In this document: piece after piece, positions 3 through 64,000 of the stretch
Layout of the letters: every line of letters begins with the position of its first letter
Numbering within the stretch: the first letter of the stretch is position 1
Assembly: GCA_964435065.1 (NCBI GenBank)
Contig: CAYSXS010000001.1
Location: 20,538 to 84,537, forward strand
DNA: 64,000 nt
Reading direction: 5' to 3'
Source of the DNA: an uncultured Gammaproteobacteria bacterium
GTDB taxonomy: Bacteria; Patescibacteriota; Patescibacteriia; UBA2196
Program-made: the position numbers and the translations under genes
The notes under the pieces: model-generated
Seen by the model: the letters and a program-made list of their open reading frames with translations, nothing else
The model's database searches: none
Told to the model about the DNA's origin: nothing

Positions 3-812
3 ACAGATGAAGATATAGCAGATTTAGATGAAAGTACTTTGCAAATATATTATTGGGATCCTGCAACTAGTGCATGGGTTTTAACTGGTGGTACAGTAGA
101 TGTGGCTAATAATAGTATTTCAGTTGATGTAGCTCACTTTACTGTTTTTGCCGTTTTTGGCCAAGAAACATCAATATCAGAAGAAGATGCTGGAAGTTTA
201 ATTAAACTTGAATGTCCTGCAGGTGCTGGTGTTAACCACTCATGTAAAAGTGTATATTATGCAAACGACGGTAAACGCTATGCCTTTCCTGATGAAAAAA
301 CGTACAATAGTTGGTATACAGATTTTTCAGGAGTAGAAGCTGTTTCTCAAGAGGCATTATCCTCTTATCAGCTTGGTGGCAATGTTACTATGAGGCCAGG
401 TACTAATCTAATTAAGATTATGTCTGATCCAAAAGTATATGCTGTTGAGCCAGGTGGTGTTTTACGCTGGGTAGATTCTGAAGCTGCAGCTATGAATTTG
501 TATGGTGCTAATTGGTCAAGCAAGGTGGTTGATGTTTTAACCACTGCTTTCCCAGATTATGATGCCGATACAGCTGTATCTAATCCTTTAACTGATTCTA
601 GTAAACATCCAATTGGATCTTTGATTCAATATGCTGGTTCTGGAGATATATATTATATAACTGCAGGCAATGCAAAACGAGCATTTAGTAATTGGTCTGC
701 TTTTACTAATAACGGGCTTAGATCAGAATTTATAATTCAAACCGATGTAGACTACGCTGATGGTATTAATATCACTGGTTTAGAAACTGTTTTAACGAAG
801 ACAGCTAGTTAA
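3..812 (+). CDS. 3' end of a larger surface/secreted protein with ~60-aa degenerate tandem repeats. The reading frame is open to the window edge, so this is 5'-partial.
   Basis: There is no stop in frame from position 3. The ORF track begins at an internal TTG at 39. Three related repeat segments are visible (KSVYYANDGKRYAF... / KVYAVEPGGVLRWV... / DIYYITAGNAKRAF...). GC is higher than in neighbouring genes. Confidence 0.5.
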   Translation, partial: TDEDIADLDESTLQIYYWDPATSAWVLTGGTVDVANNSISVDVAHFTVFAVFGQETSISEEDAGSLIKLECPAGAGVNHSCKSVYYANDGKRYAFPDEKTYNSWYTDFSGVEAVSQEALSSYQLGGNVTMRPGTNLIKIMSDPKVYAVEPGGVLRWVDSEAAAMNLYGANWSSKVVDVLTTAFPDYDADTAVSNPLTDSSKHPIGSLIQYAGSGDIYYITAGNAKRAFSNWSAFTNNGLRSEFIIQTDVDYADGINITGLETVLTKTAS

Positions 813-7548: not shown

Positions 7549-7589
7549 ATTGTTAAATTAGTAATAAAAATTAGCACAATTTTGCTAAT

Positions 7590-7794
7590 GTATGTGTGCA
7601 TCTGAAGTTTGGCACTAATTTTCCTATATTAAAAGTAGTAGCTCTCAATAAATGAAAAAGGATATATCTAACACCAAAACTCCACCCAAACCCCACAAAA
7701 ATTAGTGGGGGACTTGGGTGGAAGAGAATGGACACTCCTTAAGGATTTAATTAATGTCGATTCTCTGTAGCCAGATATACGGTGTTATACGACG
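7590..7794 (+). repeat. Copy A of a repeated non-coding element family. It has the 5' box GTATGTGTGCATCTGAAGTTT and the 3' box CCAGATATACGGTGTTATACGACG.
   Basis: Homologous copies lie at 45820-45932 and 46905-47022. Internally it carries a strong GC hairpin (7681-7720: CCACCCAAACCCCAC-aaaaatta-GTGGGGGACTTGGGTGG). Confidence 0.6.
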
Positions 7795-7835
7795 TAATCT
7801 AAAAGCCGATTCATTATAAATTTTGGTAATTTATT
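7781..7835. repeat. Left arm of a ~55-bp imperfect inverted repeat; its partner is at 8056-8116
   Basis: GGTGTTATACGACGTAATCTAAAAGCC...ATAAATTTTGGTAATTTATT compared with the reverse complement of 8056-8116, GGCGTTATACGACATAATAAAAAGCC...AATAATTTTGGTAATTTATT. The matching core AATTTTGGTAATTTATT is 17 bp. Confidence 0.6.
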
Positions 7836-7836
7836 T

Positions 7837-7995
7837 ATTTTGATCCCTTAGTATTTCCAACACTTTTTCTGGTGGATTGCCGTACCCTTCGCCAGTGTAT
7901 TTATCTGCAACAGCTTTTAGTTCCGGCTTGGAAGCGATAAGATCATTTATTGTATTTTGAGGCGATATTTCGCCTGCGTTTTCTTTCTCCATAAA
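7837..7995 (-). CDS. Possible small ORF (53 aa) between the inverted-repeat arms. This may be non-coding.
   Basis: MEKENAGEISPQNTINDLIASKPELKAVADKYTGEGYGNPPEKVLEILRDQNK. It is GC-richer than its surroundings and has no recognisable family. Confidence 0.2.
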
Positions 7996-8055
7996 ATTTT
8001 TGCGTTATTAATTAATGTTAAAATATATAGAATTATCTTTATACGTCGACCCGAC

Positions 8056-8116
8056 AATAAATTACCAAAATTATTAATAAAATATATAGAGGCTTTTTAT
8101 TATGTCGTATAACGCC
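8056..8116. repeat. Right arm of the ~55-bp imperfect inverted repeat. It overlaps the start of GC-rich element copy 1.
   Basis: See 7781-7835. Confidence 0.6.
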
Positions 8117-8366
8117 GACGGATAGGCGAAGCCTAACGAAGGACTTTCCGCAGGATGTAAGCCGAAGGCTTACAGACTAAGGAAAGGACTGAGTTAGGTT
8201 TGGGCCGAGCAGGGTGAGTGCAGGATCTGGGCGAGCCGCTTATCCGTTGTTGTCAGAAGAATCGTGAGCCTCTAGAAGGCCCAAGCCTATCCGTCGGCGT
8301 TGTCAAAAATTGAGGAGCAAGACTGGAACGAAGTGGAAGGCGAGCGAACGATATTTTTGACAACTC
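8104..8366 (+). repeat. GC-rich 261-bp structured element, copy 1. Candidate structured ncRNA or recombination site.
   Basis: Identical except for one mismatch (260/261 positions) to 47546-47808. It contains a nested perfect 16-bp inverted repeat, ACGCCGACGGATAGGC (8112-8127) pairing with GCCTATCCGTCGGCGT (8285-8300). Internal helices include GTAAGCC-gaa-GGCTTAC and TTGGGCC...GGCCCAA. A second 12-bp stem joins GTTGTCAAAAAT (8299-8310) with ATTTTTGACAAC (8353-8364). Confidence 0.85.
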
Positions 8367-8536
8367 GTTATTATCTGGCCTTTTTGAATATAATATACAA
8401 TATTTTGTATGTTATATGAATATTTGATATAAATCAGTTTTTGTTTATAATTTCATCTTAATTCTAGCTAAAATATGACCTTTATGCAAATAAAGTGCCA
8501 TTTACTAGAACGAAGAAATAGTATAAGATTAAGTAT

Positions 8537-45780: not shown

Positions 45781-45819
45781 GGTGATATTTAATCAGTTTT
45801 AAAATATTTTTTGAATAAC

Positions 45820-45932
45820 GTATGTCTGTATCTGAAGTTTTTTGCTTTCTTCATTACTATCGAAAGCAAAATTAGTAATTTAAGCGAAGGGCGAGCCGAG
45901 CCCTTAAGCCAGATACACGCCGTTAAGCGACC
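45820..45932 (+). repeat. Copy B of the repeated non-coding element family (5' box GTATGTCTGTATCTGAAGTTT; 3' box CCAGATACACGCCGTTAAGCGACC)
   Basis: Homologous to 7590-7794 and 46905-47022. Internal hairpins are TTTTGCTTTC...GAAAGCAAAA and AAGGGC-gagccga-GCCCTT. Confidence 0.6.
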
Positions 45933-46091
45933 CCAACGGAATGAAATGGAGTGAGAGCACAGCGTGGCCCGAGTTCAAAAAATATTTTTCGTCTTTATTC
46001 ATCAGATAGTCTTTCGTATATTTCTTATAAATTTGATTTTTTCGTTTTGAAAAATGAAAGAGGGGTTAGCGGTGAATTTCATTTTTTAGAA

Positions 46092-46655
46092 TTAATAATA
46101 TTTCTCTATTCCTCCAAAACCTATTAGTTTGTTTTCTCTTGTTTTGTTGATGAAGTTTTTTAGCCTTTTTTTGAATTCTTCTGGATGCTTTTGTACTCTA
46201 TGAATATAGGCAATACGAATTCTTTTGTATGTATCAGAAAATGTATTGTAATTTTTCCATGCGATTTTATCCTCCTTTACAGCATCAATGATGTCTTTTG
46301 GAAAAACAAACTTTTCTGAGGCAATTTTCTTTGCTTTGTCCAATATTAGGGGATGAATCATGTCATGTTTTAAAAGCCATTTTATTCTTTCTTTGTTTTG
46401 CTGAGAATAAGTGCTTTTGGGATTTCTTGGAGAAAAACGTTGAACACTACTCTCTTCATCAAAAGATTTAATCGTGCTATCGATCCAACCAAAACATAAT
46501 GACTCCTCTACGGCATCGTTGTATACAATTCTTATTTTACCTGAAGATTTTTTCGGATACATCAACCAGACATCTTTTTCTTTATCAAAATTCTTTTCCA
46601 GCCATTTACGCCAGTCTTTCCTATTTGTCACATAGAGTGTTTTTTCTATATTCAT
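46092..46655 (-). CDS. YdeI/OmpD-associated family protein (bacteriocin-protection-like, DUF1801-related)
   Basis: ...DVWLMYPKKSSGKIRIVYNDAVEESLCFGWIDSTIKSFDEESSVQRFSPRNPKSTYSQQNKERIKWL... Confidence 0.6.
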   Translation of the reverse strand: MNIEKTLYVTNRKDWRKWLEKNFDKEKDVWLMYPKKSSGKIRIVYNDAVEESLCFGWIDSTIKSFDEESSVQRFSPRNPKSTYSQQNKERIKWLLKHDMIHPLILDKAKKIASEKFVFPKDIIDAVKEDKIAWKNYNTFSDTYKRIRIAYIHRVQKHPEEFKKRLKNFINKTRENKLIGFGGIEKYY

Positions 46656-46699
46656 TTTATTTATTATAAATTAATGAATGATAATTTTAAATATTTTCA

Positions 46700-46924
46700 T
46701 GATCCATTTATTTGAGTCGCAAAATTATTTAAAATCTGTGCTAACTCAACAGGTTTACCAAGCATGGGAAAATGCCTAGAATCGATATCATTTTTTTTGA
46801 CTTGAAGATTCTTAATCATATTATCCTGAATTTTCTCACTAAATGCCTTATTTTTTTTCAGGCGAATATATAGGGAATTAACAGGGATGTCTTTTGTGTT
46901 TAATGTATGCGTACATCTGAAGTT
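46700..46924 (-). pseudogene. C-terminal fragment of an alpha/beta-hydrolase fold gene whose 5' part is missing
   Basis: The minus-strand translation ...DIPVNSLYIRLKKNKAFSEKIQDNMIKNLQVKKNDIDSRHFPMLGKPVELAQILNNFATQINGS* carries the catalytic-His 'HFPML' C-terminal signature of alpha/beta hydrolases. The frame is open to ~46924 and then terminates exactly inside repeat copy C. No start or N-terminal domain is present. Confidence 0.5.
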
Positions 46925-47022
46925 TCAGCTCCTTCTTTGTAGCTTATCAATATATTAACAGATAAAAAAGATACAAAGAAGGAGCTGAAATTTGGATGAA
47001 CATTTGGCGTAGTTGTACGAAG
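46905..47022 (+). repeat. Copy C of the repeated non-coding element family (5' box GTATGCGTACATCTGAAGTTT; 3' box CATTTGGCGTAGTTGTACGAAG)
   Basis: Perfect 17-bp hairpin TCAGCTCCTTCTTTGTA...TACAAAGAAGGAGCTGA. It abuts the truncated hydrolase gene. Confidence 0.6.
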
Positions 47023-47195
47023 TTCTGTTTTTTAGCTACGACTGCAAGGAGTAGCTATTTGGGCGATAAGCCCAAATAAAGAAATATTTTTTGTTATTTT
47101 TAGCTTATTGACTTATATTTTTACCTATGCTTATATTATGTAATAAAGACTAAACCAATAATTAAAATTTTACAAATAAGGTAGGAGAAATAGTT

Positions 47196-47441
47196 ATGAA
47201 AGATTTAATTAACTTTGGAGACAAGCTTCCTAGGGTCGGTCAGATTATCAATTTGTTTCGTCCTCCCGGAGCTTCCATAGTTTCATGTGAAGATACGAAG
47301 GGTTGTAGCAGTGAAAAGAGATGGGAAGTTGACAATCTTGTTGCGGATGGAGATTTTTGGTTTCGTTGCACAAAATGTAACAGATTAATCTCTCTTCATG
47401 CTAACGTGAAAGAAAAATATAATTGGAAATCGTGTGATTAA
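47196..47441 (+). CDS. Small (81 aa) Cys-rich, zinc-ribbon-like protein of unknown function
   Basis: Strong RBS AGGAGA 8 nt upstream. It has a C-x5-C ... C-x2-C arrangement (SCEDTKGC / CTKC) and is GC-richer than the surrounding genes. Confidence 0.5.
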   Translation: MKDLINFGDKLPRVGQIINLFRPPGASIVSCEDTKGCSSEKRWEVDNLVADGDFWFRCTKCNRLISLHANVKEKYNWKSCD

Positions 47442-47545
47442 GCGACACGAAGAAATAAACTTGTATCATGGCCCAGCAAGTATAAAATATGGGTCTTTTT
47501 CATTTGCCAGAAAAATAACAAAAAATATTTCTTAAAAAATGGAAT

Positions 47546-47808
47546 TTCGTACAACGCCGACGGATAGGCGAAGCCTAACGAAGGACTTTCCGCAGGATGT
47601 AAGCCGAAGGCTTACAGACTAAGGAAAGGACTGAGTTAGGTTTGGGCCGAGCAGGGTGAGTGCAGGATCTGGGCGAGCCGCTTATCCGTTGTTGTCAGAA
47701 GAATCGTGAGCCTCTAGAAGGCCCAAGCCTATCCGTCGGCGTTGTCAAAAATTGAGGAGCAAGACTGGAACGAAGTGGAAGGCGAGCGAACGATATTTTT
47801 GACAACTG
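47546..47808 (+). repeat. GC-rich 261-bp structured element, copy 2
   Basis: 260/261 nt identical to 8104-8366, with the same orientation and the same nested inverted repeats. It ends 108 bp upstream of the tyrosine recombinase gene. Confidence 0.85.
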
Positions 47809-47915
47809 GTTTATATATGAAAACAATTCGTATAATGACCTTTATTTGTACTGTATACGAATGTATCGTATAATTAATCTATATATAATTTTATTATAAT
47901 CTTTTTTTAAAAAAT

Positions 47916-48749
47916 ATGCAATTTGATTTTGAAAAATATTTAAATAAAACCAAAGACGAGTTAAGGTTAAGAAATTATAGTCAAAAGACCATAAAAAGCT
48001 ATTCAGGTTGTTTGAAAGATTATTTTAATTTTTTAAATACTAATAAGGGTATTGTTGACTTAAAATCAGTTGAAAAAGTAAAAAAATTTTTATTGAATAA
48101 ACAGAACAAGGGCAATTCAGGACAAACTATAAATTTATATTTAAATGCTATTAAATTTTTTTATAGAGATATTCTGAAGAATAATGAAAAAATAGATTTG
48201 AAGTTTTCTAAAACAAGTAAAAAATTGCCGGTGGTTTTATCACATAGTGAAATTGAAAAAATATTAAGTCATATTAGGAATGGTAAGCATAAATTAATGA
48301 TTTCTTTGGTTTATGGTGCTGGCTTAAGGATAAGTGAGGTAATTAATTTAAAAGTCCAAGATGTTGATCTAAATGAATTAACAATTCATTTAAAACAAGC
48401 AAAAGGCAAAAAAGATAGAATAACAATTCTATCTCCTAAAATTAAAGAAGAGCTGAATAACTTTTTGATGAACAAGCAGATGAAAGATTTGGTTTTTGAA
48501 AGTGAACGAGGTGGTAAGTTATCTGAAAGAACAGCTCAAAAAGTTTTTGAAAATGGATTAAAATCAGCTAAAATAAATAAACCAGCAACTTTTCATTCTT
48601 TGCGTCATTCATTTGCAACACATTTATTGGAAAATGGGGTAGATGTACGTTATGTGCAAGAACTATTAGGACATGCAAATATTCGTACAACACAGATATA
48701 CACTAAAGTAACTAATCCAAGCTTAAAAAATATTAAAAGTCCATTATGA
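47916..48749 (+). CDS. Tyrosine site-specific recombinase (phage-integrase / XerCD-like family)
   Basis: N-terminal SAM-like core-binding domain. Catalytic motifs are GLRISEVINLKVQDVD (Arg I), HSLRHSFATHLL (HxxR) and GHANIRTTQIYTKV (the Tyr nucleophile). 277 aa. Confidence 0.85.
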   Translation: MQFDFEKYLNKTKDELRLRNYSQKTIKSYSGCLKDYFNFLNTNKGIVDLKSVEKVKKFLLNKQNKGNSGQTINLYLNAIKFFYRDILKNNEKIDLKFSKTSKKLPVVLSHSEIEKILSHIRNGKHKLMISLVYGAGLRISEVINLKVQDVDLNELTIHLKQAKGKKDRITILSPKIKEELNNFLMNKQMKDLVFESERGGKLSERTAQKVFENGLKSAKINKPATFHSLRHSFATHLLENGVDVRYVQELLGHANIRTTQIYTKVTNPSLKNIKSPL

Positions 48750-56837: not shown

Positions 56838-57216
56838 GTCCGGGTAGGTGAGTGATTACCTGTATTTCTTAGGAAATATGGGAGGAAAGTCCGAACACCA
56901 ACCTATTCAATTAGGAATAATAGTTCTGAAATAGAACCAGGTATAAGACTTACGAGAAAAGTAGTTCACGATCGTGTTACTTTTAGTGGACAAAGTCAAA
57001 ACCTCGAGCTAGTGCCACAGAGACTATACTAACCCTTATGGGTGAAATGTGAAAAGTGAACTGATGTTTTTTTAAAGCTACAGTTCTCATCCCTTGGTGA
57101 CAAGGAGATGTGGTAAACCTTATTTTGGTGCAAGTCATAATTGACGCGTAGATAGATGATCACAATTACTGCTTTGCAGTAATACAGAATTCGGCTTATG
57201 ACCCTGCCTGGACAAC
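56838..57216 (+). ncRNA. rnpB: RNase P RNA (bacterial type, ~379 nt)
   Basis: Conserved P4 strands GGAGGAAAGTCCGAACACC (5') and ACAGAATTCGGCTTATG (3', corresponding to ACAGAACCCGGCUUA). P1 closes through GTCCGGGTAGG pairing with CCTGCCTGGAC. The region is GC-richer than its flanks and contains no ORF. Confidence 0.8.
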
Positions 57217-58766: not shown

Positions 58767-59207
58767 ATGAAAAATATAAATTCAAACAATTTAGTGGGCG
58801 CAGAGAAATTAAGAGAGCTTGTAAGGGAAGAATTAAAAAATACTGCAACCAAAGATGATTTAAAGGGTTTTGCAACCAAAGATGATTTAAAGGGTTTTGC
58901 AACCAAAGATGATTTAAAAAACTTTGCTACTAAAGATGATTTTAATAATTTAGCAGATAAAGTTTTAGGATTAGACACAAAAATTGATAATGTTAAGGAA
59001 GATCTACAGGATCAAATGAATGAAAAATTTGATAAAGTTTTAGAAAGCAATGATAAACTTGGAAAAAAGATGGATATCATAATTGCAGAGTCAGCAGCAC
59101 ATTCTAAGTCATATAAAGATAATGAAGAAGAAATAGAAAAACATGAGGAAGTTTTGGATAATCACGAAAATAGAATTAAGGTTTTGGAAATACAACCTGC
59201 AATATAA
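58767..59207 (+). CDS. Coiled-coil protein with 4 tandem 9-aa repeats (ATKDDLKGF)
   Basis: ...NTATKDDLKGFATKDDLKGFATKDDLKNFATKDDFNNLADKVLGL... followed by a charged helical region. A TTGTTA-17-TACAAT promoter-like sequence lies upstream. Confidence 0.5.
   Translation: MKNINSNNLVGAEKLRELVREELKNTATKDDLKGFATKDDLKGFATKDDLKNFATKDDFNNLADKVLGLDTKIDNVKEDLQDQMNEKFDKVLESNDKLGKKMDIIIAESAAHSKSYKDNEEEIEKHEEVLDNHENRIKVLEIQPAI
58845..58952 (+). repeat. 4 tandem copies of a 27-bp repeat (GCAACCAAAGATGATTTAAAGGGTTTT) within the CDS
   Basis: Copies 1-2 are identical, and copies 3-4 are progressively diverged. This also explains the spurious antisense ORF at 58742-58978. Confidence 0.85.
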
Positions 59208-63755: not shown

Positions 63756-64000
63756 GAAATGTTTACAGAAAAACAAGATAAAAGTCATATTAGGCACATT
63801 GTGTATAGTTTTTTTTGTAATATATTCATATTTACCTTTATCCCAGATCATACAGAGTGATATTCCAATGAATGAGATAGGAATGCGTTTTAATACACCA
63901 GATGAAGTAATGAATTTTCATTTTACAAATATATTTGTAGATGAGAATAAGATGTACTATGTAGAGCCATACAATATAGTTGCTAATGGAGTTGTATTTC
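63756..64000 (+). CDS. 5' part of a membrane-anchored protein that runs off the window (3'-partial)
   Basis: ATG at 63756 with no stop before the window end. MKCLQKNKIKVILGTLCIVFFVIYSYLPL... contains an N-terminal TM helix. Confidence 0.4.

Follow-up and report, generated by a model that had tools for sequence, protein, structure and literature searches.

A truncated alpha/beta-hydrolase gene probably cut by integron-type recombination in a Patescibacteria-type genome

In a stretch of 64,000 nt (the whole of the DNA analysed here, which we call the window), positions 45813-48749 probably constitute a small chromosomal integron-like locus of a Patescibacteria-type genome, in which an alpha/beta-hydrolase gene was cut by integron-type recombination. 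Four observations carry this reading: a truncation series of the same gene in two related loci and the window (L097, L006, window), a break in homology at the predicted crossover, the attC nature of the repeats, and a statistical link between the family of the neighbouring recombinase and attC arrays. Read along the minus strand, the locus would consist of an attI-like region (47915 to 47806), a GC-rich unit (47805 to 47555) and then two cassettes, one with a Zn-ribbon gene (47554 to 46904, ending in repeat copy C) and one with the truncated hydrolase and a YdeI gene (hydrolase'-YdeI; 46903 to 45819, ending in repeat copy B).

The fragment is the decayed tail of a hydrolase gene

The remnant (46697-46903, minus strand) is a real, decayed tail of an alpha/beta-hydrolase gene, truncated at its 5' end: 68 codons and a stop codon (46697-46699) are left, without a start codon. 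The minus-strand frame across 46697-46960 reads ...C*YIDKLQRRS*NFRCTHTLNTKDIPVNSLYIRLKKNKAFSEKIQDNMIKNLQVKKNDIDSRHFPMLGKPVELAQILNNFATQINGS*, and the next in-frame stop upstream of the remnant, at 46925-46927, falls on the inner end of copy C's 25-nt box (46901-46925). The original prediction, which described this frame as a hydrolase C-terminus lacking both a start and an N-terminal domain, is borne out on each of these points. No start codon covers the homologous part of the remnant, and an internal ATG opens a 40-aa ORF that is the sole callable one.

Searches of Pfam and the Protein Data Bank with the 75-aa fragment alone returned no match, and its hydrolase homology is visible only by way of a relative, P0001 (95 aa, 91% identical to the fragment, from locus L006), the one protein returned by a search of 5.8 billion. 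P0001 matches the C-terminal ~90 residues of many proteins of 233-254 aa with E-values down to 7e-20; the homology to hydrolases is real. These longer proteins are members of Abhydrolase_6, and P0001 and the window fragment align to their residues ~145-235; in the Protein Data Bank, P0001 likewise matches hydroxynitrile-lyase and esterase structures at their C-termini. The remnant therefore shows homology to Abhydrolase_6 in its C-terminal segment only. A second relative, P0392 on locus L097, is intact, and it shares with other homologues the nucleophile elbow (xHSxG) and the oxyanion HGxG motif, both of which are absent from the window remnant and from L006.

Set against hydroxynitrile-lyase, methylesterase and BioH-like alpha/beta-hydrolases, the remnant keeps a C-terminal segment in which the catalytic Asp and His positions are in register, but it amounts to the last 68 residues, without the elbow. 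The catalytic His is kept and the catalytic Asp has become Asn (KKNKAF, where relatives have KKDKAF); in addition, the SGH of relatives has become SRH and the window copy carries a 3-nt deletion. Without a nucleophile elbow and with its Asp replaced, the remnant, judged from its sequence, cannot be an active enzyme.

Related loci carry the gene at three lengths

P0392 is a full-length hydrolase of 287 aa that belongs to the same cluster as P0001 (built at 90% identity). On metagenomic locus L097 its gene is followed directly by the 40-nt spacer and the YdeI gene that are also present in the window, and so provides the relative with an intact hydrolase-YdeI neighbourhood against which the original prediction proposed to compare the window. 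The DNA of L097 is 89% identical to window positions 46095-46902, and the contig that encodes P0001, L006, has 90% identity to positions 46272-46908. The hydrolase gene is thus intact in L097, 95 codons long in L006 and 68 codons long in the window, while its 3' end, the spacer and YdeI are common to all three. Upstream of its hydrolase stump, L006 carries an unrelated DJ-1/PfpI-like gene, which had no tblastn match in the window. Residues 4-26 of P0001, which are missing from the window, align with full-length hydrolases, and FTPESKRLYIDR is identical in P0004; because these residues are genuine hydrolase sequence, the window state is derived. In L006, on a contig without copy C, the hydrolase was already short by ~150 codons. 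The covariance model described below found no attC on L006 or L097, both of which are short contigs. At its GC-rich start, L097 shows a possible likeness to part of the terminal hairpin of an attC.

Homology of the window to L006 and to L097 ends at 46902-46908, within a few bases of the outer edge of copy C, where the original prediction had placed the break. That prediction took copy C to be the left end of a large foreign segment that had split a host hydrolase gene and that included the Zn-ribbon ORF, a GC-rich element, the tyrosine recombinase and the downstream glycosylation genes. A break at the edge of copy C and a recombinase 1 kb to its right are what such an insertion would leave, but the rest of the evidence makes it very unlikely. 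The hydrolase of L006 is truncated without any copy C. To the right of 47701, up to position 64000, there is neither an N-terminal part of the hydrolase nor a further box or attC. Glycosylation genes and the same base composition are found on both sides of the locus, with no step at 46905, the position at which the original prediction had proposed to compare the two sides. The stop codon of the recombinase gene overlaps the start of the next glycosyltransferase gene by 4 nt, members of the recombinase family are common across Patescibacteria and have, with few exceptions, attC arrays upstream, and the part of the locus that is common to unrelated genomes is the YdeI side. Because the recombinase gene overlaps its neighbour and its family is widespread in Patescibacteria, the right-hand side looks, from its sequence, resident rather than inserted.

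The proposed interruption by foreign DNA is thus partly supported: the 5' truncation and the recombination with mobile DNA stand, and the split by a large insertion does not. Copy C is better read as the attC of a small cassette (46904-47554), one of three units, and the mobile unit as the hydrolase'-YdeI cassette to its left (45819-46903) in place of the 17 kb to its right.

The repeats are integron-type attC sites

The 25-nt box has three copies in the window, all of them on the plus strand (A at 7586, B at 45816, C at 46901), and marks three sites that read on the minus strand. Copy C (46898-47018) has R'' GTACAAC (47018 to 47012) and R' ATTAAAC (46904 to 46898), and closes the Zn-ribbon cassette; copy B (45813-45928) has R'' GCTTAAC and R' GTTATTC; and copy A (7583-7790), with R'' GTATAAC and R' ATTAGCA, closes a cassette with a 53-aa ORF (7831-7992, minus strand). 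The three copies have nothing but the box in common, and each box can pair with a distal segment ending in GTTA. When 185,579 species genomes were scanned for the box, it was matched once, in a Patescibacteria genome (L013) in which no other similarity to the window was found. There the box is the L'-R' half of one among three tandem sites, each at a cassette end, that read CATCA-GCTAAC-L''...L'-[G/A]TTAGCT-GAAAT and whose L'' and L' halves covary.

In the consensus fold of a seven-site alignment, an R stem and an 11-bp L stem are joined by a 3-nt bulge. The covariance model based on it (R1) found sites on which it had not been trained, including copy A (28.9 bits, E 1.6e-4) and both GC-rich elements (23.4 bits for the GC-rich unit); copy B, one of the training sequences, scored 76.5 bits. 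Copy C, in which pairing on the R'' side is irregular, was not detected by R1, and its assignment as attC is drawn from the shared 25-nt L'-R' box together with the 10/10 complementarity of its cassette ends.

Over 54 sites, pairing holds in 93.4% of cells and drops to 33-50% once partners are slid. The L stem is 98.1% paired, with compensatory changes in 10 of its 11 pairs and a covariation score of 0.487 (0.06-0.10 with slid partners). In the AAC core of these sites AA is invariant, the third base is C in 47 and U in 7, and the base that follows is always G (54/54). In 49 of the 54 this base is engaged in a G·U pair, which is possible on the modelled strand only; in copies A, B and C the core reads TAAT/TAAC-G. 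The modelled strand is the more stable one in 10 of 13 folded sites, copies B and C among them, the exceptions being copy A, L007_4 and L007_5. In the arrays of L013, L007, L054 and L041, all one-directional, the sites lie at the 3' ends of ORFs.

Published attC sites are recognised by their R and L boxes, a spacer that stays unpaired, a terminal structure that varies, the G that follows AAC and the folding of one strand (PMC2727003). The window repeats resemble integron attC sites in their inverse core boxes (..YAAC / GTT..), in the AAC with its invariant G on the folded strand, in R and L stems separated by an unpaired spacer, in the variable terminal structure and in their position at ORF 3' ends of one-directional arrays; all three copies are attC sites of the integron type. 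They differ from canonical sites in that extrahelical bases on the R''-L'' arm are absent from the consensus, whose L stem is continuous; their asymmetry comes instead from the L'-R' arm, where 3-5 bases between the R and L boxes are unpaired. Some sites also have A for G at the crossover (ATTA), as in the R' of copies A and C, which starts with A, and some are long (208 nt for copy A). Lacking the canonical extrahelical bases, these sites may not follow canonical integron rules.

The core boxes would also permit the opposite orientation, with the window plus strand as top strand. We rejected it because the boundaries at 47555 and 47806 (GC unit) and at 46904 (hydrolase) fit the minus-strand reading alone, which agrees as well with the ORFs and with the divergent recombinase.

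Strongly folding palindromes that follow ORFs, and for which Rfam has no model, could instead be some other structured element: terminators or REP-like palindromes, miniature remnants of the IS200/IS605 type, or small RNA genes. We regard this as highly improbable, since a conserved AAC core precedes an invariant G, as in attC (PMC2727003), the unit ends complement each other across cassettes, homology breaks at the core, and the sites occur upstream of a single recombinase family in fixed orientation (66 against 0, see below). No transposase gene lies nearby; the window as a whole contains no transposase or TnpB gene of the kind expected of an IS200/IS605 or miniature element, and the sites are linked to a tyrosine recombinase instead. 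Rfam, which contains no attC family either, returned RNase P alone at gathering thresholds and chance microRNA-like matches at both loci at permissive ones. Further candidates were dropped for want of conserved features or partner genes: the 5' end of a group II intron (GUGYG), a CUGA core like that of a hammerhead, IS200/IS605 ends, and a dif/Xer site resembling TAATGTAT. A search for a tRNA or tmRNA gene that could serve as an attachment site found none.

A compact recombinase is tied to attC arrays

The tyrosine recombinase encoded at 47916-48749 (plus strand, 277 aa) is related to both XerA and IntI, and its gene faces away from the cassette array. It matches PF00589 at 6e-44, and its Arg, Lys, HxxR, His and Tyr motifs align with those of VchIntIA, which is also its best match among solved structures (PDB 2a3v, E 1e-44, in two aligned stretches). 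Residues 183-198 of the recombinase (16 residues) face residues 180-238 of 2a3v (59 residues), so that ~43 residues are missing and the IntI-specific additional domain is absent. That domain defines the integron integrase family (PMC9668308). In keeping with its absence, the recombinase falls short of the integron-integrase models (226.6 against a cut-off of 265 for TIGR02249, 142.5 against 435 for NF011946) and passes the NCBIfam XerA model NF040815 (237 bits, cut-off 220), and its length and domain layout are similar to those of archaeal XerA.

Xer enzymes act on short double-stranded dif sites, and to our knowledge they have not been linked to cassette arrays. The present family departs from them in this respect. 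Its relatives, 60-79% identical, were recovered from 80 metagenomic loci, in which 66 attC matches lie upstream of the recombinase gene (154.6 kb searched) and none downstream (256 kb), all but one in the orientation seen in the window. Where at least 1 kb of upstream sequence is available, 30 of 35 loci have an attC match; the ORFs there face away from the recombinase and have attC sites at their 3' ends. All named homologues (266-293 aa) come from Patescibacteria or Parcubacteria. The recombinase family is therefore statistically linked to attC arrays, although this particular enzyme may serve, additionally or exclusively, as a housekeeping Xer recombinase next to which the arrays happen to lie.

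Between the recombinase gene and the array lies a conserved attI-like region (47806-47915; AACTnGTTTATAT...), which includes the probable promoter of the recombinase gene (TTGTAC-17 nt-TATAAT). The attI-like block and a promoter-like TTGTAT...TATAAT are kept beside the recombinase gene in 11 of 11 loci, over which AACT and ~25 further columns are invariant. The arrangement is that of IntI as exemplified by VchIntIA, with matching active-site motifs, a gene that faces away from the array and a conserved attI-like block between the two; unlike IntI, the enzyme is only 277 aa long, without the additional domain, and scores below the NCBI cut-offs. The locus thus combines canonical integron geometry with a non-canonical integrase.

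The break coincides with the predicted crossover

On the minus strand, copy C ends ...CGCATACA|TTAAAC, and hydrolase homology begins at TTAAAC. The canonical integron crossover lies at G|TTRRRY, and the break falls within ~4 nt of the crossover predicted here, [G/A]|TTAAAC at 46904|46903. At the position of the break L006 reads gaTTAAAC and L097 gaATAAAC, so that a core-like site was available within the hydrolase gene. Homology between the two GC units ends at 47555|47554 and 47806|47805 (counterparts 8113 and 8364), again at this position of their sites, which brings the independent homology breaks at a predicted crossover to three (46904|46903, 47555|47554 and 47806|47805).

We also compared the 5' end of each cassette with its own R'' flank, to which it is expected to be complementary, over 10 positions. 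The cassette with the 53-aa ORF and the Zn-ribbon cassette are complementary at 10/10, and the GC unit at 9/10 after we re-registered the alignment; a single T/C difference between the two GC-unit boundaries (8110 against 47552) is mirrored in the R'' boxes of copies A and C (GTTATAC against GTTGTAC). Like integron cassettes, these units have ends that complement their own R'' and homology that breaks at G|TT. The hydrolase'-YdeI cassette matches at 5/10 only, and its 5' end is therefore not cognate. This mismatch, read from sequence, points to recombination at a core-like secondary site inside the hydrolase gene. Integron recombination at secondary or genomic sites has reportedly been described as an attG pathway (Loot et al., Nat Microbiol 2024).

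An ordinary deletion or repeat rearrangement that is not site-specific could have ended beside copy C by chance, with the attC sites as bystanders. A single junction of this kind was seen, and copy C, with its atypical R''-side pairing, is missed by model R1, both of which leave room for this explanation; a break no more than ~4 nt from the predicted crossover, the likeness of the L006 gaTTAAAC at the break to an R' core, and two further homology boundaries in the window at the same site position all speak against it, and we consider it improbable.

On the preferred reading, integron-type recombination, the hydrolase-YdeI pair would formerly have been an intact two-gene unit, as it is in L097. 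A tyrosine recombinase would have swapped strands between a folded attC and a core-like sequence within the hydrolase gene (gaTTAAAC in L006), either as a cassette was excised from an L006-like donor by way of the internal site or in an in-place deletion that joined copy C to that site; neither route calls for insertion of the 17 kb on the right. In the process the first ~175 codons of the hydrolase would have been lost, leaving the rest to decay as a pseudogene. We infer that the enzyme encoded at 47916-48749 catalysed the event and that a secondary site internal to the gene was used. Neither a circular intermediate nor an alternative junction was observed. If the cassette is mobile, its circular junction would be expected to read ...ACATACG + TTAAACACAAAAG (45819 joined to 46903), and its deletion product copy C + TTATTCAAAA.

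A possible Patescibacteria lineage of integrons

The junction taken alone is ordinary integron biology: it illustrates that integron-type exchange can cut a gene short and move the remainder together with a functional neighbour. What looks new is the combination of host group, short integrase, attC sites without extrahelical bases and a conserved GC-rich unit. The full-text literature that we searched contained no report of integrons in CPR/Patescibacteria, surveys based on IntegronFinder do not mention Patescibacteria, and the paper on archaeal integrons stresses that archaeal integrases keep the additional domain.

These features may together describe a widespread and distinct Patescibacteria lineage of integrons, with a compact ~270-aa XerA/IntI-like integrase, attC sites without extrahelical bases and a GC-rich element, a reading that we hold tentatively and judge to be slightly short of an even chance. 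Its integrase would work without the domain thought both to define integron integrases and to be required for activity, and the attC strand to be used would be marked by the asymmetric spacer and the conserved G·T pair. A GC-rich platform element with two alternative pairings would lie beside attI, and the hydrolase stump would be the trace left by this system at a core-like site inside a gene.

What defines an integron is an integrase whose extra domain reads flipped-out bases of the folded attC. Here the extra domain and the flipped-out bases are both missing, yet at dozens of metagenomic loci attC arrays accompany the recombinase family in the classic arrangement. If active, such a system would represent a simpler way of recognising folded single-stranded sites, would bear on the origin of integrons from Xer-like enzymes, and would provide small Patescibacteria genomes with a platform for gene exchange.

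Cassettes, their cargo and a second locus

The hydrolase'-YdeI cassette (45819-46903, minus strand) starts with TTAAAC, ends with the G of the R' box of attC copy B and is bounded by copies C and B. Its intact cargo is a YdeI/OmdA-family gene (46092-46655, minus strand, 187 aa); below 45819, the next feature is the terminator of a glycosyltransferase gene. Proteins of the YdeI family with 70-93% identity to this one occur in metagenome-assembled genomes labelled Patescibacteria, Planctomycetota, Actinomycetia, WOR-3, Diapherotrites, Altiarchaeota and Methanomethylovorans, and the neighbours of these homologues differ between genomes. Loci L007 and L008, an unrelated cassette array, have 92% DNA identity with window positions 45877-46699 and with no other part; L007 is a one-directional array of small unrelated genes, between which lie palindromes that start with ..TAAC and end with GTT... 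Judged by these comparisons, the truncated hydrolase together with YdeI (45819-46903) is the most clearly transferable piece of the locus. In five other YdeI contexts (L010-L012, L014 and L016) no attC was detectable, and YdeI is thus not always in a cassette.

The Zn-ribbon cassette (46904-47554, minus strand) ends in copy C and holds an 81-aa ORF on the plus strand (47196-47441), inverted with respect to the array. Next to it, the GC-rich unit (47555-47805, minus strand) has no ORF and adjoins the platform; in it, an attC-like site occupies 47549-47696, a distal and perfect partner arm 47727-47753, and a hairpin 47741-47806.

A resident chromosomal locus whose few cassettes are of mixed function recalls sedentary chromosomal integrons. 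A second locus in the window (7583-8440), which has lost the recombinase gene, repeats the GC unit and one cassette, which ends in copy A, and in this resembles CALINs, clusters of attC sites without an integrase; a tblastn search found no second copy of the recombinase in the window. Unlike both sedentary integrons and CALINs, the loci described here have a Patescibacteria host and a structured GC-rich unit conserved beside attI. The second copy of that unit (8113-8363, minus strand) is 98% identical to the first and is followed by a degraded attI-like stretch (8364 to ~8440).

A GC-rich unit with alternative pairings near the recombinase gene

Beside the tyrosine recombinase gene lies a GC-rich unit (47544-47806), and a second copy is found at 8102-8364. 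Units of the same design are present at other metagenomic loci of relatives, namely L056 (3450-3626), L058 (324-499), L085 (1334-1525), L094 (174-325), L065 (123-331) and L076 (252-426); across these and the window copies, sequence varies among loci while the design is retained. That design comprises two alternative pairings of one 5' arm: with a nearby partner it can pair imperfectly, giving an attC-like fold, and with a distal partner it can pair perfectly over 15-17 nt. A second perfect hairpin overlaps the distal partner, and its terminal ..YAAC coincides precisely with the attI crossover.

The second window copy, 98% identical, belongs to a second integron-like locus (7583-8440), which has no recombinase. 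A 53-aa ORF and attC copy A are also present there, together with an attI-like stretch that is degraded, and a glycosyltransferase gene follows directly.

Among the 80 recombinase-family loci (L017-L096), 30 have a contig end no more than 300 nt upstream of the recombinase gene, and the L001 contig ends ~250 nt beyond the Zn-ribbon ORF. Both observations are consistent with assemblies having broken at attC sites or at the GC unit, which is repeated. Upstream of the recombinase genes, the attC covariance model gave 66 matches, only one of which has the opposite orientation; it belongs to a high-scoring head-to-head pair in L066, at 17-123 (-) and 174-280 (+).

The hydrolase-YdeI cassette and its relatives

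In L097, a relative with an intact hydrolase gene, the stretch upstream of that gene at the contig start (1-110) is GC-rich and includes TTCTTCACTTCGTTACGAAAAC, which is similar to the attC family's first terminal hairpin. The stretch may be a remnant of a preceding attC; the attC covariance model gave it no score.

Relatives of the window YdeI (46092-46655; relatives P0152-P0271) that belong to the YdeI/OmdA group and share 70-93% identity with it are found in MAGs whose labels span many phyla of both bacteria and archaea, and in varied gene contexts. This distribution suggests frequent horizontal transfer of YdeI, at least some of it in the form of an integron cassette. Comparison of 46272-46903 with L006, a relative that keeps 95 codons of the hydrolase, shows ~95% identity over the hydrolase stump and spacer, whereas the adjoining YdeI gene is ~88% identical, a difference that hints at a mosaic history of the stump-YdeI cassette.

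Other features of the window

The sole Rfam match within the window is a bacterial class A RNase P RNA at 56841-57214 (107 bits). A 27-nt tandem repeat lies inside coding sequence at 58827-58961.
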